DNA of 64,000 nucleotides from Octopus vulgaris. Lineage: Eukaryota. The stretch spans positions 173,104,001-173,168,000 of the forward strand of contig OX597814.1 in the NCBI GenBank assembly GCA_951406725.2. Direction: 5' to 3'. Positions 11,455-51,162 of the stretch are shown in pieces. The notes beneath the pieces were generated by a model. The model did not search any database. It had not been told where the DNA came from and saw only the letters and a list, made by a program, of their open reading frames with translations. Every line of letters begins with the position of its first letter. The stretch's first letter is position 1. The translations under genes were made by a program, and so were the position numbers.

Positions 11455-11552
11455 TGTATTTATCGTAGAGAACTCATTCCTTTTTATGTATAATTATTGA
11501 AGCTTTATCATTAATTATTACTTTTGTTTTAACGATACTATACTCCGTTTTA

Positions 11553-11953
11553 AGGGGGCGAGCTGGAAGAAACTTTAGAACGCCGGGCGAAATGCTTAGC
11601 GGTATTTCGTCTGCCGTTACGTTCTGAGTTCAAATTCCGCCGAGGTCGACTTTGCCTTTCATCCTTTCAGGGTCGAGTAAATAAGTACCAGTTACGCACT
11701 GGAGTCGATATAATCGTCTTAATCCGTTTGTCTGTCCTTGTTTGTCCTTTCTGTGTTTAGCTCCTTGTGGGTAGTAAAGAAATAGGTATTTCGTCTTTTT
11801 CGTTCCGAGTTCAAATTTCGCAGAGGTCGACTTCGCCTTTCATCCTTTCGGGGTCGATAAATTAAGTACCTGTTGCGTACTAGGGTCGATCTAATCGACT
11901 GGTCCTCTCCCCCAAAATTTCGGACCTTGTGCCTAGAATAGAAAAGTATATTG
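11553..11953 (+). mobile_element. tRNA-headed SINE family A with duplicated body and TSD
   Basis: GGCGAGCTGG head, GTTCAAATTCC B-box-like motif, GAGGTCGACTTTGCCTTTCATCCTTTC body present twice (slightly variant); TSD TACTCCGTTTTA at 11541-11552 and 11954-11965. Confidence 0.85.
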
Positions 11954-17017: not shown

Positions 17018-17501
17018 ATGTATATACATATATATATATATACATGTATATGTATATATATATGTATATATATATGTATGTGTATGGTGTGTATATATAT
17101 ATACATACCCTTTCTTTCTATCTCTCTCTCTCTCTCTTTGTCTTTCTTTGTTTCTACTTTTTATATTTATCTGCACATATACATGCGTGTGTGTTTACGT
17201 GTATGTATGCGTATATGAGAGTGTTTGTGTTCGTATTGATGAACCTAGCCTACCTAGAATTTTAGTAGGAAGCTAGTCACACTGAGAGACAGACAGAAAG
17301 ATAAACATATGAATAGATAAACACACATAGAAACAAAATTGATATGGACGTACATAAATGCCTATGGTCATCGATTGATTCATTGAAAGATTGATTAACT
17401 GATTTGACATGGCCCTATTTTTCAAATTTGAAAAATTTGAACGCATAAGCACGAGGCATATACTAGATTGCCTCGTGTATACATATTTAATCTAAGGTGT
17501 A

Positions 17502-17572
17502 TCTGCTGAAGAAGGCTTTGCCTAGCAAATCATTTTATTTGCTAAAAAAAAGTCTGAAACCATTGGTCCAGG
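17502..17572 (+). ncRNA. Type I hammerhead ribozyme
   Basis: TCTG-CTGAAGA-AGGCTTT(inner hairpin TAGCAAAT/ATTTGCTA)AAAGTCT-GAAA-CC ATT GG-TC-CAGG; GUC cleavage triplet at 17566-17568; stem I extends through an internal loop into ATCTAA/TTAGAT. Confidence 0.82.
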
Positions 17573-17972
17573 AGTTAGATGGTAAATGTTTTCATTTTTC
17601 ATTCCCTTCGATATTATATCCCTAATAGTGGTTCGGATTTTAACTGTCCTCTCTAACGTGCGGGTAGTCCTATGATAGCTACCTCTTATATGTTTAAATG
17701 TACACTGTATTTATATGAATAATATATAGTCTATTGACTAAATTTTTACACGCTAGGCTACTGGTAATGAAAATTTCTAATACTTCAGATTACCCTTTGA
17801 TATTGATAATTATTGATAATTTTGGGGGATAATTTTCGAAATGAAAAAGCCGGCATATTTATTTACTGCCGACAAGGAGCTGCGCTTGTGCTGTACATTT
17901 GAAATATTAAAATGTATAAGCACGGGGCATATACTGGATTGCCACGTGTATATATATTTAATCTAAGGTGTA

Positions 17973-18041
17973 CCTGCTGAAAAAGGCTTCGCCTAGCAAA
18001 TTATTTTATTTGCTAAAAAAGTCTGAAACCATTGGTCCAGG
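17973..18041 (+). ncRNA. Hammerhead ribozyme copy with core mutation (CUGAAAA, G8>A), probably inactive
   Basis: Same stems as 17502-17572 with the conserved G8 replaced by A. Confidence 0.65.
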
Positions 18042-18282
18042 AGTTAGATGGTAAATGTTGTATTTTTCATTCCTTTCGATATTTTATCCCAAATTGTGGT
18101 TTGGAATTTAACTGTCCTTTCTAGCGTGCAGGTAGACTGTATTTATATGAATGTACACTGTATTTATATGAATAATATATAGTCTATTGACTAAAGTTTT
18201 ACACACTAGGCCACTGGTAATGAAAATTTCTAATATTTCAGATAACCCTTTGATATTGTTAATTACACACACACACACACAC

Positions 18283-18335
<53 letters not shown>

Positions 18336-21866: not shown

Positions 21867-22092
21867 CCGGAGTAAACACATAATTGTGAAACAAGGTGGG
21901 AAACAAAGTACTCAAATACCAGAGGTAGAGTAATATGCTTTATTTAAATGCAGCAGAAATTTAACAAAAGCTGTTACTCGGAATTTCATGTTCCCGTTCG
22001 TCGGACAGTTTGTTAACAAAACTGTCCGACGAACGGGAACATGAAATTCCGAGTAACAGCTTTTGTTAAATTTCTGCTGCTTTTAAATAAAG

Positions 22093-22639: not shown

Positions 22640-22641
<2 letters not shown>

Positions 22642-23438
22642 GGGGTTGGACAAAATAATGGAAACACCTATTATCATAGCATCATGATTTTGAGATATCT
22701 ATAAAACCGTCAAAAGCTTGTTTATTTATATTTTTTTATTATTAGTGTTTCATCATATGTTTTCCTAAAATTGCTGTTTCTTTTCGGACATCATCAGAAA
22801 AAGGTAATTAAAATACAATAAAATGACAGATCTGTCGGACTTTCAAAGCGGTCAAATTGTTGGAGCTCGATGACAGGCGATAGCGTAACGAAAGCAGCCG
22901 AAATGTTTGGTGTATCAAGAAGTACAGCCTCAAAAGTAATGGCAGCCTATGGGAAAGAGGGAAAAAACCTCCTCGTCGAAACAAAACTCCGGGAAAAAAT
23001 CAAAACTTTCAGATAGGGATCATCGGACTCTTACGCGAATTGTTAGAAAGGATTACAAAAGTACAGCTCCCAAAATTACTGCAGAGCTTAATGACCACCT
23101 CGAGAACCCAATTCCCGCAAAGACTGCTCGCCGGAAGCAACACAAAATCGGATTTCACTTGAGGGCTGCAATAAGAAAACCACTACTTTCAAAAATAAAC
23201 GTTGCAAAGCGTTTAGGGTGGAGTAAAAACCTACAGAATTGGTCCCTAGAGCAGTAGAAGAATGTTGTTTTCTTGGACGAGTCATCTTTTACCTTATTTC
23301 TGACCACCGGCCGAGTATACGAAAACAAAAGAAGCATTTGACCTAGACTGCCTTCTTCCAACTGTTAAACATGGAGAAGGATCTGTGGTGATCAGGGAAG
23401 GGGGCTATATCTTGGAAATCCGCCGGCCCAATGGTTTC
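22640..23438 (+). mobile_element. Tc1-like DNA transposon, left TIR plus truncated transposase pseudogene (ATG 22823)
   Basis: TIR-like AGGGGTTGGACAAAATAATGGAAACAC after TA; MTDLSDFQSGQIVGAR / SVTKAAEMFGVSRST / KLSDRD.RTL.RIVRK / RKPLLS / VVFLDES / PTVKHGEGSV with frameshifts and a stop; breaks at (TA)n before the HHR array. Confidence 0.88.
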
Positions 23439-23439
23439 A

Positions 23440-23494
<55 letters not shown>

Positions 23495-23606
23495 AGGAAC
23501 GGCCATAATAGGCCATTCACCCACTAGAAATAACAGCCAAAGCTTCAACCGCAAAATAACATTAATTCCGCAAACCAGGAGAAAATTAAAAAACATTTAC
23601 CCTGTA

Positions 23607-23713
23607 ATTTCTTATACGATGCACCGTTTCATCTACTGTTTAATGGTAAACTAACCTGATTAAATTAAATCAAGCCAATTTTCCATAGGCCCTTAGATTC
23701 GTCAGTAAGAAAT
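23607..23713 (-). ncRNA. Type I hammerhead ribozyme, unit 1 (allele A, intact stem III)
   Basis: Minus strand: stem I AUUUCUUA, core CUGACGA, stem II AUCUA...UAGAU (long hairpin with G-U pairs), GAAA, stem III ACGG-UGCA-UCGU, cleavage triplet GUA, stem I UAAGAAAU. Confidence 0.85.
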
Positions 23714-24092
23714 AGCCAGAACGGAACAGATATTTTCACGAGGCATTTCTGTCCCTGCCTCGGCAATATCTGACCTAAAATTTTCAAATCATCGCACTCG
23801 CGCCAAATTTATCGGCAGCAAATAAATATAAGCCGCCGATTCCATTACGGAATCAACCAGAAAATTCATAATTAATCAATATAGGGTGGCAAAAATTTTG
23901 TAGAATTTTTTTGCCACCAGCGGCCTAGTGGGAAAAAATTAAATAGCCATAGACCATTTATAAGTTCAACATCACAATCAAGGAACGGCCATAATAGGCC
24001 ATTCACCCACTAGAAATAACAGCCAAAGCTTCAACCGCAAAATAACATTAATTCCGCAAACCAGGAGAAAATTAAAAAACATTTACCCTGTA

Positions 24093-24199
24093 ATTTCTTA
24101 TACCATGCACCGTTTCATCTACTGTTTAATGGTAAACTAACCTGATTAAATTAAATCAAGCCAATCTTCCATAGGCCCTTAGATTCGTCAGTAAGAAAT
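24093..24199 (-). ncRNA. Type I hammerhead ribozyme, unit 2 (allele B, G-G mismatch in stem III)
   Basis: Same fold as unit 1 but stem III reads ACGG-UGCA-UGGU. Confidence 0.75.
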
Positions 24200-24580
24200 A
24201 GCCAGAACGGAACAGATATTTTCACGAGGCATTTCTGTCCCTGCCTCGGCAATATCTGACCTAAAATTTTCAAATCATCGCACTCGCGCCAAATTTATCG
24301 GCAGCAAATAAATATAAGCCGCCGATTCCATTACGGAATCAACCAGAAAATTCATAATTAATCAATATAGGGTGGCAAAAAAATTTTGTAGAATTTTTTT
24401 GCCACCAGCGGCCTAGTGGGAAAAAATTAAATAGCCATAGACCATTTATAAGTTCAACATCACAATCAAGGAACGGCCATAATAGGCCATTCACCCACTA
24501 GAAATAACAGCCAAAGCTTCAACCGCAAAATAACATTAATTCCGCAAACCAGGAGAAAATTAAAAAACATTTACCCTGTA

Positions 24581-24687
24581 ATTTCTTATACGATGCACCG
24601 TTTCATCTACTGTTTAATGGTAAACTAACCTGATTAAATTAAATCAAGCCAATTTTCCATAGGCCCTTAGATTCGTCAGTAAGAAAT
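24581..24687 (-). ncRNA. Type I hammerhead ribozyme, unit 3 (allele A)
   Basis: Same core and stems as 23607-23713. Confidence 0.85.
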
Positions 24688-25070
24688 AGCCAGAACGGAA
24701 CAGATATTTTCACGAGGCATTTCTGTCCCTGCCTCGGCAATATCTGACCTAAAATTTTCAAATCATCGCACTCGCGCCAAATTTATCGGCAGCAAATAAA
24801 TATAAGCCGCCGATTCCATTACGGAATCAACCAGAAAATTCATAATTAATCAATATAGGGTGGCAAAAAAAAATTTTGTAGAATTTTTTTGCCACCAGCG
24901 GCCTAGTGGGAAAAAATTAAATAGCCATAGACCATTTATAAGTTCAACATCACAATCAAGGAACGGCCATAATAGGCCATTCACCCACTAGAAATAACAG
25001 CCAAAGCTTCAACCGCAAAATAACATTAATTCCGCAAACCAGGAGAAAATTAAAAAACATTTACCCTGTA

Positions 25071-25177
25071 ATTTCTTATACCATGCACCGTTTCATCTAC
25101 TGTTTAATGGTAAACTAACCTGATTAAATTAAATCAAGCCAATCTTCCATAGGCCCTTAGATTCGTCAGTAAGAAAT
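25071..25177 (-). ncRNA. Type I hammerhead ribozyme, unit 4 (allele B)
   Basis: Same as 24093-24199. Confidence 0.75.
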
Positions 25178-25343
25178 AGCCAGAACGGAACAGATATTTT
25201 CACGAGGCATTTCTGTCCCTGCCTCGGCAATATCTGACCTAAAATTTTCAAATCATCACACTCGCGCCAAATTTATCGGCAGCAAATAAATATAAGCCGC
25301 CGATTCCGTTACGGAATCAACCAGAAAATTCATAATTAATCAA

Positions 25344-25932
25344 TGATGTTGAACTTATAAATGGTCTATGGCTATTTAATTTTTTCCCACTAGGCCGCTG
25401 GTGGCAAAAAAATTCTACAAAATTTTTTTTGCCACCCTATATTGATTAATTATGAATTTTCTGGTTGATTCTGTAATGGAATCGGCGGCTTATATTTATT
25501 TGCTGCCGATAAATTTGGCGCGAGTGCGATGATTTGAAAATTTTAGGTCAGATATTGCCGAGGCAGGGACAGAAATGCCTCGTGAAAATATCTGTTCCGT
25601 TCTGGCTATTTCTTACTGACGAATCTAAGGGCCTATGGAAGATTGGCTTGATTTAATTTAATCAGGTTAGTTTACCATTAAACAGTAGATGAAACGGTGC
25701 ATGGTATAAGAAATTACAGGGTAAATGTTTTTTAATTTTCTCCTGGTTTGCGGAATTAATGTTATTTTGCGGTTGAAGCTTTGGCTGTTATTTCTAGTGG
25801 GTGAATGGCCTATTATGGCCGTTCCTTGATTGTGATGTTGAACTTATAAATGGTCTATGGCTATTTAATTTTTTCCCACTAGTTGCTGGTGGCAAAAAAA
25901 TTCTACAAAATTTTTTTGCCACCCTATATTGA

Positions 25933-25940
<8 letters not shown>
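25344..25940 (+). mobile_element. Inverted ~1.2-unit copy of the same hammerhead repeat, head-to-head with the array
   Basis: Sequence from TGATGTTGAAC (25344) is the reverse complement of the unit and ends in (TA)n at ~25940. Confidence 0.92.
25608..25714 (+). ncRNA. Type I hammerhead ribozyme in the inverted copy (allele B)
   Basis: ATTTCTTA 25608-25615, CTGACGA 25616-25622, ATCTA/TAGAT stem II, GAAA 25691-25694, GTA 25704-25706, TAAGAAAT 25707-25714. Confidence 0.78.
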
Positions 25941-35097: not shown

Positions 35098-35346
35098 CAA
35101 CACCAGTACCAACGACAATAATAACAACAAAGTCGTAGAGGCAATACCACGGGCGGGTGATTTTTGGATGGCATTACAGCAATGTAATCTTCTCGCTCTC
35201 CAATAAAATTATATCAAAACATGTCAGGTGTTTTTTATGGATACATGTTATTTTTAACATTTTTGCCACCGATTTTGTGACTTTTGGCTGAAACACATTG
35301 ACGAAAGGTATATACCCACATATGTATGCATACAAGCACACACAAC

Positions 35347-35579
35347 CTATTTCTTTACTACCCACAAGGGACTAAACACAGAGGGGACAAACAAGGACAG
35401 ACAAATGGATTAAGTCGATTGCATCGACCCCAGTGCGTAACTGGTACTTAATTTATCGACCCCGAAAGGATGAAAGGCAAAGTCGACCTCGGCGGAATTT
35501 GAACTCAGAACGTAACGGCAGACGAAATACGGCTACGCATTTCGCCCGGCGTGCTAACGATGCTGCCAGTTCGCCGCCT
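35347..35579 (-). mobile_element. SINE family A, near full length
   Basis: High similarity to 11553-11790. Confidence 0.85.
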
Positions 35580-36239
35580 TTACAAGCACACACAACCGCG
35601 TTTTCACAGATAAGACATTGGCAAACCCGAAACCATGGTAAAAAAAAATAGCGTCTGTCTAACATAGTGAACAGTAGTGGTTACGAAACAAATACTTGAG
35701 GCACACAGCAAAGCTTACCTACACCGCCCGAAATACTTGCATCCAATCCAGAATGTATTAAAGGGACCGAGAACGATAGTGTACTATCATGATAATTTAA
35801 TATGACAAAACTGAACATTAAATGGAGTTACCCACAAGTAACCGAATACTCAATCAGATGATTCTAGTTAATTACACAAGATAAACATTCTGTTGGATCT
35901 AACAATACACCCTCTTAAAGTACAGATAAGTTAATAAGCCTAGCTGAATATGGCTGGAATAAATATTTTGTTTTCCTCTTTCCTCTTACCTTCAGTTTTT
36001 TTTTTTTTTATTTTTACGTTGGAATATCGGACTCGAATACACGAATGTTTTAGGTGGTATTGAAAAGAGGTTTGTTTTCCCAGAATATATGAAAACTAGT
36101 TCTTTATTGACAAAACAACAGTGACAAAATAGTCATGAGAAGCTATGATTTCAGTAACATCTGTAATAATATTTGTTCGACGGAGGATCCGGCGCTTATT
36201 ATACAGGGCTTCGCCAACTTCTTGGGAGCTACGGATCTG

Positions 36240-38434: not shown

Positions 38435-38764
38435 CTTTTCTATTCTAGGCAGAAGGCCCGAAATTTTAGGGGATGGGACCTGTCGATTAGTACTTAATTT
38501 ATCAACCCTGAACGGATGAAAGGCATAGTCGACCTCAGCGGAATTTGAACTCAGAACGTAAAAACGAAATACCTATTTCTTTACTACCCACAAGGAGCTA
38601 AGCACAAGGACAGACAAACGGATTAAGTCGATTATATCGATCCCAGTGCGTAACTGGTACTTATTTAATCGACCCCGAAAGGCTGAAAGACAAAGTCGAC
38701 CTTGGCGGAATTTGAACTCAGAACGTAACGGCAGACGAAATACCCCTAAGCATTTTCGCCCGGA
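38435..38764 (-). mobile_element. SINE family A with duplicated body
   Basis: Same composite layout as 11553-11953. Confidence 0.8.
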
Positions 38765-39035
38765 GTGATAACAAAAGGCAAACGATGCTGGATCATAGAT
38801 ATAGCATGCCCAGCTGATAATAAGGTATGCAATAAGGAAGAAAGACATGTCGATAGATATGACAGGGAGGTTAAGCAGTTGTGGACGATGAAAAAGGTGG
38901 TTATAATTGTCGGAAACCTGGGAGCAGTCAGTAAAAATCTTGAGAAGTACATGGAACTAATAGGGGCTGCAATAAGGGTGGAGAACTTGCAGAAAACAGC
39001 ACTGCTTGGAGCCGCTCGAATACTCCGGATGGTGC
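38765..39035 (+). mobile_element. Second, divergent R4/Dong-type RLE fragment, sandwiched between SINE pieces
   Basis: CWIIDIACPADNKVCNKEE...IIVGNLGAVSKNL...LQKTALLGAARILR. Confidence 0.75.
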
Positions 39036-39262
39036 ATCGACCCCAGTGCTCAACTTATTTTATCGACCCCAAAAGGATGAAAGGCAAAATCAACATCTGC
39101 AGAATTTGAACTCAGAACCTAAGAATAGCACTAACCATTCCGTCTGCCATGCTAATAATTCTGCCAGCTCGCAGCCTTAGTAATAATAATAATAATAATA
39201 GCAATAATAATAACAACGAAAACAACAACAACAACAATAATTATAATATTGTCTTGGTATAT

Positions 39263-39520
39263 CACTGATTTAACCTAAATTTGAGACACCAGCAAAAGAA
39301 GAAATAAACATGGAATTTTTCTATTCCAAAGAAAAACGATTTTATTCACTTTATCGATCGCATTCTCACCTGGAATCGATTTCTGTAATTTTTTCAAGAC
39401 TTATATACGCCCTGATACCGTCGGTATCAACAAATCAAATTTGAGCGCAATCGGATGGAGGATGCTCGAGATCCTAGAAGACACTCGCACAGACAGACAG
39501 AACGGATTTTATATAATAGA
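39263..39520 (-). mobile_element. Helitron-like family 2 copy (3'-truncated)
   Basis: Matches the 5' two-thirds of 44020-44410. Confidence 0.68.
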
Positions 39521-40709
39521 TAATAATATAACAACAACCACCGCTATCGCCACTCTCTTCATTCAATACATCTCAGGTTTACAAACTGATGTGGTCAATC
39601 GATCTGCTGATAACTTGCTAGTAATAACAACCAAACCTCTAAGAAATCACACCCTACCGTCGTAAAAAAAGAAAAAGACTAGAATTCCTTTGATCATTAG
39701 ACTTTCCAATCAAAAACTAACCTGCGACTAAACAACAACAGTAACAATTTCTCAAGATTTCCGTTATTTTCAAGAAGGACAGGGGCATTTTAGTAGGGTT
39801 TTGGTGGAGGAGGGCTCTCTAAGATAAACCCCCTTTCGCTGTTGTTTATTCGCTACTTTTCCGAGAGATGTCTTGTCGCCGTTTAGTTTACTCTTTGTAT
39901 ATCTGTCTGTCGTTGTTTATTTAAAATGACGATCATTTTCGTTTACTCTTTACCCAACCTCTGACTTCTTTGCTTTAACAAACGACGTTTCTGCTAGCTT
40001 TAACGTTTGTCTTTCTTAAATATTTTATACTATTCCGCCACACACACGAACACGCACGCATTCACAAACACACACACACACACCACATACACATGCTCCT
40101 GTACATCCTTACATACACCGCATTTTTTCTTATCTTCCGTTGTGGAGGGTTGCGTTTTTTCATTGCAAGTAATTCTTCCTTTCTTGATCCCCCGCTCCCC
40201 ACTAGACACACAGACATACGCACACATACACAAAAACCTACACATTCTTATCGTCCCTTTTGTTTTCGGGGAATTTTTTTCTTCCACTTTCTGCCTTTTT
40301 TTATATATTTTCTTTATGTCTCCTTCTGTTACTTCCAACGTCACCCGCCATCACCAACGCTACTACATCTGTTTATTTTATTCTGCTTATATACGTGTGT
40401 GAGTGCGTGAGTGTGTGTGTGTGTGCGTGTACATATATAGGAGTACGTGTGTGCGTAGGAGTGTGTGTGTCGATATTATTCGTTTCTTTTGGTTTTAATG
40501 TTGACATTTTGCTATTAATCTTGTTCGTTTTTGTTGTTTTAAGAGATTTCGCGAATATCCTTTAGCCAACATGTGCCGCCGTCAATTTGTCATTCTTGCC
40601 AAATATATAATAAATTCGAGACCATATCTCACATCTAACCCAGGTTTTTGTTTGTTTCCTTTATTTATTATTATCATTGTTGTTGTTTTTGTGGTTGCTG
40701 TTATTGTTG

Positions 40710-42929: not shown

Positions 42930-43930
42930 CCTCCACGGCTATAAGATATCAAGAATAAAATTACTCCTTAGAAGAGTATTTATATTCTTGTCAACAATCC
43001 AAGACACCAGAGAAAGAAATCCACTGAAAAACGCATGCATTGATTAGCAACGGACATTCCAAAAGACTAGTAGACTAGTAGAACTACCGGAGAAGACAAA
43101 CACAAATACATTACATGTTGATCAGAGAATAACCCAATGAAAATACACAAATGTAATATAAATTCATTTTATGAGCCAAATGCATAAAATCTATGGAACA
43201 GACGAATACTTGATGAAAAACCTCAAACACCGGAACGTAACATGGATCACACCCAACCATAAACTTAACACATAATTTACAAAAAAATACCAAACTAAAA
43301 GCTTCCTTATCCGCAATATACCGCAATTATGTAAACTAGGGAACACACGCTGTTAATTACCGCTGTGATCTATAATTTCGAAAGTAAAATTAAAGTTTGA
43401 AAATTGAAAATTTCAAACCCCCAGCTGCTACAACTAGCTGCTACATTGGGCATACTATGTCAGCGATTTCTCGTAGGCATCCATGCATTTACAACAAGGA
43501 ACAATCGCAAAATACTATACCTTATACCGCAAAACAAAGTTAGAAAAATACGTACACTCTCTATAAAATTCCTCATGAACATAGAAGATTAATTGTGGAA
43601 GCCATAATTACATGACAGTACAATTCCAAAATAAACATACAAGCAACATATCCAAAACAGATTAACACATGGCTACCTATGGATCAGAAATTGCACCAAA
43701 ACAACCAAATCAACGTAGAAATCTAACGATCAAAAAGTGTTTGTGTCTAAGTCTACATGAAACAATACAGACGCCAAGCAAGTTAAATTCATGAAAATGA
43801 GATTTTTCAAGTCTGGAAACATCGAATATGAAATTAGGATATTTTTTGTTCCAAACACTAATGGGAAAATACGAAAAATCTAAACTAAAACGATAAAACT
43901 TAAACACAGACTTGTATTTAATGAAACATA
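42930..43930 (+). mobile_element. Decayed Penelope-like retroelement 3' part (GIY-YIG endonuclease relic plus degenerate pLTR hammerhead at 43787-43827)
   Basis: Broken frames give ALISNGHSK, AVIYNFES, CYIGHTMSAISRRH (YIG at 43442), HLQQGTI and RRLIVEAIIT*QYNSKINIQ, matching the GIY-YIG motif order; downstream ATTC-ATGAAAA-...-GAAACATC-GAAT. Confidence 0.65.
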
Positions 43931-44019
43931 TATACATACAAACACACTCTCTCATGCATACAGAGACACATATATACATATACATATATGAATGCACACA
44001 TACACATACAATGCATATA

Positions 44020-44518
<499 letters not shown>

Positions 44519-44775: not shown

Positions 44776-45964
44776 CGAGGCGGCATCAAAAGTTTCCCGG
44801 ACTAGTTATGTTTAATAAAAAAGATTAACTTATTTAATTAGTTTTTAACATCATCTGCTTCGAAATAGTCACCGTGAACAGCAATGCAGCAATCCCAGTC
44901 TTTCTACTACTTCTGGAATCTGACCTGGAAGTCGTTTTCTGTAAGCGGGTCGAGGTTCTTTTGCGATTCATTCTGGATTTCGACAGCAGTGTATAAACGG
45001 CAAAATTTGAGCGGCATTTTCATTTTGAGGAAAAGGTGGAAGAGTCCGCAGATGCTAAATCTGGCGAAGAGGGCGGGTACGAAAGCGATACCATGTAGTT
45101 TTTGGCGAAAAATTCACGAGTGAGGAGAGTTTGGCGGCAGAGAGCATTGTCGTCGTGAAGAATAAAATTCTTCGCGCACAACAGATCTAGTCGCTTTCAC
45201 CGAATGTCCTCCCTCAAACGTTTCAAAACGTTGCTGTTGAACTTTGGACTGACAGCCTAATCCTGAGGGACGAATTCCCGATGCATAATACCACATTTCC
45301 GGGGGTAATTCTCGTGGCAGTTCTTCCAGATCGTTTATCGTCTTCCAGGGACAGTCTTCCGCTTTTTGTTGTGTGGACGCCCCCAGACGATGAAGTAGGC
45401 TAGCTCAATATGTAGATATAGAGGGAGAAGCCTAGACGTCAAGAGAACAGTTGAGCATCTGTGAGAGCACAGTAGAAGAGAGTCAAGATTCGAGCAGAGT
45501 TGAGTAGCGGTGAGAGGACAGCACAGTAGAGTCGAGAGTAGCAGTCGGAGCAGAGAGCAGAGAAAGAGAGTTGAGTAGTAGAGGCATCCGAACGTGTGAC
45601 ATAACACTTTTGAAGTGCCCGAGCCACCCACTCGAAACATTGCGTACGACCCATTGCCTCGCCGCCGTATGCTTGGCGGAGCATGCTGAATATCCCTGTA
45701 GTAGACTTCCCAAGTTCAACGCGAAATTTCACTTTGGCACTTTGCTCCTGTCCATGACAAAATCGCAGACATGCGATCACAAAAATACGATCACAAACAT
45801 GCGATCACAAAAATACAAATTTTACAAGTTGCGAAGTAAACACAGCAATGTCACTCGCCACACTGCCTCATGAAGGCCACTGTTAGCTTTCAGTTTGCAT
45901 GTAACTGTGTTGCCATCTGTTGGTGCGCTACAGAACTAGTCCTGGAACTTTTGATACCACCTCG
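44776..45964 (-). mobile_element. Mariner-like transposon with both TIRs and an internally deleted, decayed transposase
   Basis: TA-CGAGGCGGCATCAAAAGTTTCCCGGACTAGTT ... AACTAGTCCTGGAACTTTTGATACCACCTCG-TA; N-terminus EQSAKVKFRVELGKS..MLRQAYGGEAMGRTQCFEW; C-terminus HDDNA..YPPSSPDLA..GDYFE. Confidence 0.88.
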
Positions 45965-50520: not shown

Positions 50521-51162
50521 AGGCGGTGAACTAGCAGAATCATTAGCACACCAGGCAAAATGCTTAGCGGCATTTTGTTCGTCATTACGTTCTGAGCTTT
50601 GTGTTTCACCCTATCGGGGTCGATAAAATAGGTTCCTTATTTCTTTATTGCCCACAAGGGGCTAAACATAGAGGGGACAAACAAAGACAGACAAAGGTAT
50701 TATGTTAATTACATCGACCCCAGTACGTAACTGGTACTTAATTTATCGACTCCGAAAGGATGAAAGGCAAAGTCGACCTCGGCGGAATTTAAACTCAGAA
50801 CGTAACGGCAGACGAAATACCTATTTCTTTACTACCCATAAGAGACTAAACACAGAAAGAACAAACAAGGACAGACAAACGGATTAAGTCGATTATATCG
50901 ACCCCAGAGAGTAACTGGTACTTAATTTATCGACCCCGAAAGGATGAAAGGCAAAGTCGACCTCGACGGAATTTGAACTCAGAACGTAGCGGCAGACGAA
51001 ATACGGCTACGCATTTCGCCCGGCGTGTTAACGATTCACCTTTGCTCGTCACCTTTGAGCTCGTTGATAAAATAAGTTCCAGTCAAGCACTAGAGACCAT
51101 GTAACCGACTAACGCCTTCCCCACCCAAATTTCAGGCCTTGTGCCTATAATAGAAAGGACTA
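50521..51162. mobile_element. Nested SINE family A cluster: minus-strand composite copy (~50637-51037) between plus-strand pieces
   Basis: Head on + at 50521, reverse-oriented double body, then + strand tail. Confidence 0.75.

Follow-up and report, generated by a model that had tools for sequence, protein, structure and literature searches.

The family B array and its surroundings

The window (the whole 64-kb stretch of DNA that was analyzed) is AT-rich (GC 0.27-0.44), contains microsatellites throughout (134 tandem-repeat rows), and reads as animal intergenic DNA. Comparison of its 126 low-repeat ORFs with Pfam returned only Tc1/mariner-type helix-turn-helix fragments plus one weak DUF. The repeat designated family B occupies positions 17426-18265 on the plus strand as 1.8 units of 471 bp, with a unit GC content of ~0.30-0.32 (i.e., below 50%) and no Pfam family among the low-repeat ORFs of the unit. 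The following features were identified:

17426-17896, plus strand: family B unit copy B1, 471 bp, the 5'-truncated start of the array (limits based on the 471 offset to B2 and on joints 17896->17426 in DNA runs X2, X4, and X13)
17897-18265, plus strand: partial copy B2, 369 bp, ending against (AC)n
17417-17436, no strand assigned: perfect 20-nt palindrome at the 5' junction, in which the first ~10 nt of the element are preceded by their own inverted copy (a micro 5' inversion)
17450-17477, plus strand: pre-hammerhead hairpin of 9-10 bp with a 10-nt loop; seven stem pairs shared unchanged with family A, the loop having diverged
17490-17580, plus strand: type I hammerhead of B1 with intact core (C3 17506, G8 17511, G12 17556, C17 17568 within GUC)
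17581-17590, plus strand: GGUAAAUGUU, directly behind stem I and identical in families A and B
17624-17800, plus strand: multibranch domain of B1, ~175 nt, with helices 17628-32/17757-61 and 17653-60/17749-56; candidate signal for reverse transcriptase (RT) docking or initiation
17662-84, 17727-31/17736-40, and 17763-68/17789-94, plus strand: hairpins of the B1 multibranch domain, the last being the terminal hairpin
17961-18049, plus strand: hammerhead of B2 with G8>A (CUGAAAA, position 8 at 17982), cut site 18037, predicted inactive
18092-18253, plus strand: multibranch domain of B2, its inner hairpin lost to a deletion/21-nt duplication
18258-18265, plus strand: 3' terminus of family B (site Y), at position 243-244 of the B unit counted from the cut; the family A plus arm has its 3' end in this aligned column
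18265-18321: microsatellite (AC)n behind B2

BLAST aligned positions 17426-17812 with 17897-18265 at an identity of 87%, gaps counted, and 30 of the 369 aligned columns hold a substitution. The direct repeat of ~471 bp that had been reported for this locus was therefore recovered in its offset of 471, and 1.8 units were present rather than two full ones. The 5' flank was not a microsatellite and a target duplication left no visible trace. Family B is a short, non-coding tandem repeat present in many copies, with a single type I hammerhead in each unit, and in these features it agrees with non-LTR retrozymes.

Other elements were dispersed through the window. A long and nearly perfect inverted repeat at ~21935-22090, with arms of ~70 nt, adjoins (TA)n and looks like a fold-back element or MITE. 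A dispersed repeat of ~230 nt and 91% identity was found in both orientations (11552-11796, 35345-35580, and 50638-51037), within which a 184-nt tandem pair lies at 50638-51004; it is probably a SINE or MITE family. Two frames, 39285-39662 on the plus and 43713-44279 on the minus strand, start with almost identical translated stretches, which points to a further dispersed repeat in opposite orientations. A 119-aa frame at 38750-39106 (plus strand) resembles, by its motif, the terminal restriction-like endonuclease of R2/R4-type retroelements and had no Pfam match. A mariner relic at 45442-45804 (minus strand) gave a weak match, below the cutoff, to the Mos1-type transposase helix-turn-helix (PF17906, E 0.003).

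Hammerhead motifs

The hammerhead core consensus comprises C3 U4 G5 A6 N7 G8 A9, G12 A13 A14, the pair A15.1-U16.1, and H17. The CUGAAGA...GAAA...GUC hammerhead proposed for B1 was borne out with a complete core and three helices: CUGAAGA lies at 17506-12, GAAA at 17556-59, and the C17 of GUC at 17568 is the predicted cut site. Stem I consists of 4 bp, an internal loop, and then 6 bp; stem II of 6 bp, a loop, and then an 8-bp hairpin that extends it; and stem III of 3 near-palindromic bp. All 13 core-flanking pairs were canonical in B1 as well as in B2, and the closing pair 10.1-11.1 of the B hammerheads is A-U, not G-C. In the loose-end consensuses of X2, X4, and X7, position 17555 (hammerhead position 11.1) carried A instead of U, which marks a common subfamily in which the base of stem II may pair differently.

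B2 failed the core test at G8 only, through 17982, so the crippled neighboring hammerhead described by the original prediction is present in the form that decay leads one to expect. At 8% copy divergence, the probability of at least one difference in the 13 core positions is 0.67, and the family variants listed, 40 out of 96, do not include G8>A. From its sequence, the change in B2 is probably decay with a predicted loss of activity and, as B is an old copy, needs no special reading. The locus as a whole is considered a decayed copy because B2 carries G8>A and is partial. Two consecutive units with complete hammerheads, by which Li et al. (10.64898/2026.07.22.740005) define an active copy, do not occur in B. 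All five hammerhead cores of the second family of the window, family A, are complete.

The pattern CTGANGA-N40-70-GAAAC-N18-26-GGTAAATGTT matched B1 and all five A hammerheads, giving six matches in the window against 0.00 in 100 shuffles. Rfam at gathering level returned no match in the whole window, and none of its hammerhead families was among the seven matches at E<=10 in 17430-18262; the long stem II and short stem III would likely explain this miss by the models. Among the 119 metagenome stretches (44 of 64 parts) and 12 viral contigs, none of 133 pattern matches had stems I and II of at least 3 bp, and nhmmer with A and B found no match on the 131 metagenome and viral loci; the pattern matches there are considered to be chance since the stems are missing and nhmmer came back empty.

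The active hammerhead fold of a B monomer was predicted to lie 3.5-3.8 kcal/mol above the minimum free energy, with a stem I pair probability of ~0, and the predicted stem III self-duplex of -8.9 kcal/mol is compatible with a dimer. In both families, the 3' strand of the stem II extension is complementary to the conserved GGUAAAU that follows the hammerhead, with a predicted duplex of 7-9 bp at ~-7 kcal/mol (17535-17546 with 17578-17590; in A, 24616-24628 with 24566-24578 on the minus strand). This modeled pairing, noticed post hoc, is possibly an alternative, ribozyme-blocking fold.

Homology of families A and B

Family A lies some kilobases downstream in two arms:

23491-25344, minus strand: family A array of 3.8 units of 488 bp in alternating variants (period of two units), terminating 3' in (AT)n at unit position 124
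25344-25940, plus strand: family A inverted arm, 597 bp and 1.2 units, from unit position 127 to 235 (site Y), against (AT)n

A decayed Tc1/mariner-type transposase fragment at 22640-23438, with a PF01498 match (E 2.5e-12) at 22940-23254, ends at the (AT)n flanking family A.

Families A and B had been described as sharing little overall identity, with structure and not sequence being conserved. Both statements were contradicted by an alignment anchored on the core, in which 300 of 446 ungapped columns (67%; 58% of 513 columns) were identical, and by a global alignment score of 266.5 against 125+-12 in 300 dinucleotide shuffles (z 11.5); such shuffles gave 57% ungapped identity. Homology was also recovered by BLASTN (E 3e-4) and nhmmer (E 1e-16). 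The two families are therefore homologous by plain sequence, which is conserved as well as structure, and identity was equal at positions paired in A (129/191) and at unpaired ones (112/169). A register shift, in which the CUGAAGA of B is homologous to a stretch inside A stem II, was tried and rejected; its scores were nearly equal and its local match had P 0.06-0.43.

The membership of A and B in one family was upheld by this homology and by the shared motif order, found to be collinear once the proposed formal alignment was run. The CGAGGCA/UGCCUCG hairpin (17452-58/17469-75) occurs in both families and holds no covariation, because its seven pairs are identical in A and B. The extended stem II and the internal loop in stem I were likewise confirmed in B, but the architectures differ from those of A: stem I before the internal loop has 8 bp in A and 4 bp in B, and the stem II arm has 68 nt in A and 43 nt in B.

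A probably conserved multibranch domain behind the ribozyme

Folded alone, B1 gave a multibranch core equal to that of A folded alone. A covariance model built from A only found B1 17624-17800 end to end with 37.5 bits versus 20.2 bits for a sequence-only model, and B2 with 27.0 versus 24.9 bits (a gain of +2 bits), the bit scores of the two kinds of model not being strictly comparable. Pairing was further compared with a neutral null, in which a structure-aware alignment that rewards only changed-but-paired positions was applied in the same way to simulations keeping identity, gaps, and substitution bias. For the domain, the A->B1 score was reached by 1/150 and 1/700 simulations (z 3.1) and the B1->A score by 0/250 (z 4.7), with domain limits picked after viewing the helices and covariation that rests on two families. 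Tests with B2 were weaker, as 14/150 simulations reached A->B2 and 11/250 reached B2->A. For the hammerhead, the corresponding counts were 3/300 (A->B1) and 17/300 (A->B2).

Helix placement against a neutral null showed that, outside the hammerhead, B1 kept 76 of 97 A pairs (68.1+-3.1 under the null, P 0.0075) and B2 kept 62 of 75 (51.6+-4.1 under the null, P 0.0025). Totals from structure-blind alignment had P values of 0.03 (A->B) and 0.28 (B->A), and double changes alone were not significant in the structure-blind and helix-placement tests (P 0.07-0.38 overall, 0.11-0.38 by helix placement). Clear double changes were seen once in helix 17628-32/17757-61, twice in the long-range stem, and three times each in hairpin 17662-84 and the terminal hairpin. 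The long-range stem 17653-60/17749-56, originally drawn as a consensus of the two copies, has one broken pair in each of B1 and B2, and the family letter at 17656 backs the consensus. G.U pairs numbered 16 in 127 A pairs on the hammerhead strand and three in 107 on the other strand, which favors the former as the RNA strand; the opposite strands also beat shuffles in folding (z -2.6 and -5.8 versus -3.2 and -7.1). Raw pair counts for B1 from a model-fitted alignment (of 53 pairs, 22 unchanged, 13 double and seven single changes kept, four broken, and seven gapped) were set aside because an alignment of mostly unrelated matches reaches 95.6% paired.

The original prediction extended the conserved structure over the whole ~480-nt unit, and signal was found only in the hammerhead and in 17624-17800. 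The ~120-nt stretch 17827-17950 gave none under two structures (99/200 and 195/400 simulations reached the score), despite hairpins that can be drawn in it. Conserved pairing outside the ribozyme core is thus probable across the ~175 nt of 17624-17800, on the strength of the B1 nulls (1/700 and 0/250) with weaker B2 tests, and has no support in the final ~120 nt. The compensatory changes claimed for the stems correspond to a net excess over the neutral null in A/B1 that, with two families, is suggestive and below R-scape grade.

Family B in DNA runs outside the window

Words of the B unit occurred in runs of five species labels (20 of 24 rows), none of them listed as RNA. Four runs were aligned to 17250-17900, namely the DNA runs X2, X4, and X13 (three species labels) and X7, and the small-share runs X10-X12 and X14-X20 were left out of the family B comparison. 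X7, which is RNA by guess only, had 323 contigs covering the element and not the unique flank, and was counted neither way. Contigs aligned to B numbered 3962 in X2, 2323 in X4, and 1727 in X13, and joints going back 471-472 (17896->17426) were present in all three; these contig numbers and joints in three DNA runs establish B as multi-copy and tandem. Depth was 38.6, 16.5, and 42.7 on the unique flank versus 1e3-5e5 summed on the element, the latter not being a copy number.

Pairs that are broken in B1 were restored by the majority letters of these runs at 17502 (C for T, 86-99%), 17656 (G for A, 94-99% of depth in each of the four runs), and 17759 (C for T, 98-100%), and the majority letter at 17502 turns a stem I G.U into C-G. 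Common variants likewise kept pairs at 17515 (stem II G.U to A-U) and at 17767 (A-U to G.U). Loose ends of organism E suggest that the long-range pair found as U-A in B and as G-C in A has a third state, G.U, as read from unlinked consensuses with an agreement of 0.62-0.77.

The 5' junction of B was spanned without a difference by one X2 contig (from another study) and with four differences in 220 by one contig of organism B, such that the B insertion predates the split from organism B. One organism E contig (X13) followed the left flank over 17250-17398 with 14 differences in 149 and then left it at 17398 with 106 unaligned letters, which is possibly an empty site.

Insertion ends and site Y

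The 3' ends of family B and of the A plus arm fall on one aligned base, which lies ~18 nt past the terminal hairpin of the multibranch domain and 235 nt (A) or 243-244 nt (B) from the cut. Site Y corresponds to 17811-12 in the complete B unit and to unit position 233-235 in A. Such a shared end would be expected by chance at ~2% (2 ends x 5/480). Each of the three 3' ends that these elements have in the window borders on (AC)n or (AT)n, an adjacency that is weak alone because the window is microsatellite-rich. The insertions display the anatomy of the Penelope-like element (PLE) type, i.e., 5' truncation, a partial tandem, and an inverted 5' segment (10 nt in B, the 597-bp arm in A).

The minus arm of A ends at unit position 124 and its plus arm starts at 127, which we take to be twin-priming geometry. 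The twin-priming model has been described for L1 (PMC2246262), and this reading of A is nearly symmetric given that the minus arm starts at unit position 223; site Y is taken as primary since B ends there too. Successive A copies alternate strictly at two sites, unit positions 423 and 485, each variant recurring in every second unit, and one of the alternating variants shortens stem III from 4 to 2 bp.

Site Y was absent among the 24 of 796 loose ends listed, which included ends into (AT)n at 17716 (X4, 32 contigs, agreement 0.57). The ends at 17716 and at A position 124 indicate that several A/T-rich priming sites exist. In PLEs, two RT start sites can be separated by an optional tail of 30-40 nt; the few end sites seen here are A 124 and 235 and one near B 17716. 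Depth behind 17821 falls 3.4-4.4x in X2 and X4, and not in X13.

Proposed mechanism and alternatives

Family B, with its 1.8 units, represents an old and decayed insertion of a tandem repeat that is non-coding, occurs in many copies, and is very probably of the retrozyme type; a non-LTR retrozyme mobilized by a PLE is the reading that we moderately favor for it. The class, probably a non-LTR retrozyme or non-autonomous PLE, and the insertion-end evidence were both absent from the original prediction. More tentatively, with a probability of about 0.35, the ~175-nt domain could be a cis-acting docking and internal-initiation signal for a Penelope-type RT, its structure being kept and its 3' end fixed within 2 nt, with A recording twin priming on a dimer-periodic, possibly circular template.

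By analogy with known retrozymes, multimeric transcripts would be cut at GUC 17568, with a dimeric cleavage fold that is probable because stem III is short and near-palindromic. Cleavage would yield ~470-nt monomers, perhaps circularized by the host RtcB. A PLE enzyme may then nick a microsatellite and prime reverse transcription internally at site Y; its RT/endonuclease would recognize the fold behind the ribozyme and start just downstream. Partial tandems could arise from RT running round a circular or multimeric template and the inversions in A and B from second-end priming, and the broken pairs in B1 and B2 as well as G8>A would be post-insertion decay. The window contained no autonomous PLE or RT fragment, with no match to RT or GIY-YIG among its 126 low-repeat ORFs.

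There is a modest chance that the units are instead the 5'-truncated terminal repeats (pLTRs) of two autonomous PLEs, the domain being the 3' signal of the PLE itself. PLE insertions are mostly 5'-truncated partial tandems (PMC8557442), the B hammerhead is PLE-like in shape, and 21 PLE matches were reported for 24 of 57 Xenopus retrozyme families (10.64898/2026.07.22.740005). The B unit, however, closes on itself, with joints going back 471 in three DNA runs, and A strings together 3.8+1.2 units without a coding stretch, the unit having no Pfam match.

Mobilization by a microsatellite-targeting LINE, with the fold serving RNA stability or circularization and not RT docking, was judged unlikely. 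LINEs were left open as partners of retrozymes, whose circles are highly self-paired (Cervera and de la Pena, PMC7229834), twin priming is a described feature of L1, and several end sites exist. Against a LINE stand the lack of a poly(A) or own simple-repeat tail, the termination of two families 33% apart at one internal base, and the position of the covarying part, which lies just upstream of that base and is not unit-wide.

Improbable as well is a satellite amplified at the DNA level, whose hairpins would reflect shared ancestry and whose covariation would be an artifact of two sequences and a flexible alignment. An identity of 67% by itself keeps many pairs, paired and unpaired positions are equally identical, the 95.6% of paired cells in the model-fitted alignment came from 89 rows of which most were unrelated microsatellite matches, and the B2 tests are weak. 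Nevertheless, the neutral nulls were exceeded (1/700, 0/250), the hammerhead helices re-pair with different sequences, and the insertion ends and inversions resemble reverse transcription.

Selection for an inactive second hammerhead in both families, with alternating strong and weak ribozymes making a dimer-length transposition template, accords with the A alternation at two sites (one cutting stem III from 4 to 2 bp) and with one intact plus one G8>A core in B, but is very improbable in that the B change fits neutral decay (P 0.67) and is missing from the 40 of 96 variants listed and the A alternation needs only a dimeric donor.

Comparison with known retrozymes and Penelope-like elements

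Animal retrozymes are known, and the account of Li et al. (10.64898/2026.07.22.740005) does not settle how, and by which enzyme, they are copied. The structured domain common to two diverged families, together with the insertion terminus common to both, supplies a candidate RNA signal and start site that can be tested directly. As an RT signal, the domain would link retrozymes to PLEs mechanistically, a link not found in print; as a mere stability fold, it would leave B a new but otherwise ordinary retrozyme family, from a lineage in which the literature searches showed no hammerhead report. A PLE terminal repeat sharing the domain and the GGUAAAUG motif would name the partner enzyme. In O. 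vulgaris, 31 recently active Penelope-like families have been described, with ribozymes unmentioned in the main text of that source (PMC13282606). No paper was found on a covarying non-ribozyme retrozyme domain or on cephalopod hammerheads, and supplements and subscription papers may hold cases.

B has in common with animal non-LTR retrozymes (PMC7229834) a tandem unit that is non-coding, contains a single type I hammerhead, has a GC content under 50%, and occurs in many copies, along with a short stem III suited to dimeric cleavage and a self-paired fold. The B and A units of 471 and 488 nt slightly exceed the 150-450 bp given there (PMC7229834) and fall within the 51-972 bp of a recent preprint (10.64898/2026.07.22.740005). 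Stem II is long in A and B, and neither a covarying domain nor a fixed 3' end was found described for those retrozymes (PMC7229834). Retrozymes have been proposed as PLE derivatives (Li, Clavereau, Pollet, 2026; 10.64898/2026.07.22.740005), and those of that preprint are like A and B in their proposed PLE dependence and in their monomer, dimer, and multimer loci. The evidence there was co-occurrence and pLTR phylogeny in vertebrates, compared with insertion anatomy and a conserved fold here, and only one of nine dimers was cleaved in the assay reported (10.64898/2026.07.22.740005).

PLE insertions are characterized by 5'-truncated partial tandems, an inverted 5' copy, and a microsatellite bias (Craig et al., 2021; PMC8557442). 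A and B share 5' truncation, head-to-tail partial tandems, and an inverted 5' copy with EN+ PLEs and with non-autonomous Chlamys elements such as MRC1, together with the (TA)n/(CA)n bias that hides target duplications (PMC8557442). PLE hammerheads have a short helix I, a long helix II, and a small palindromic helix III (Cervera and de la Pena, 2014; PMC4209133), which is the shape of those of A and B. In contrast to PLEs, A and B have no ORF, and the A end sites lie 111 nt apart compared with the 30-40-nt tail (PMC8557442). Reverse transcription of PAc, a Poseidon element of Anolis, begins at an internal stem-loop that follows the hammerhead on its downstream side (Frangieh et al., 2024; PMC11167929). 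As proposed for A and B, genomic ends mark the start sites of PAc and the target is A/T-rich (PMC11167929), a likeness that is functional only. In PAc, ~85-92 nt separate the cut from the start, which falls within the ORF in an AC-rich stem-loop (PMC11167929), whereas A and B end 235-244 nt after the cut, behind the multibranch domain of a non-coding unit.
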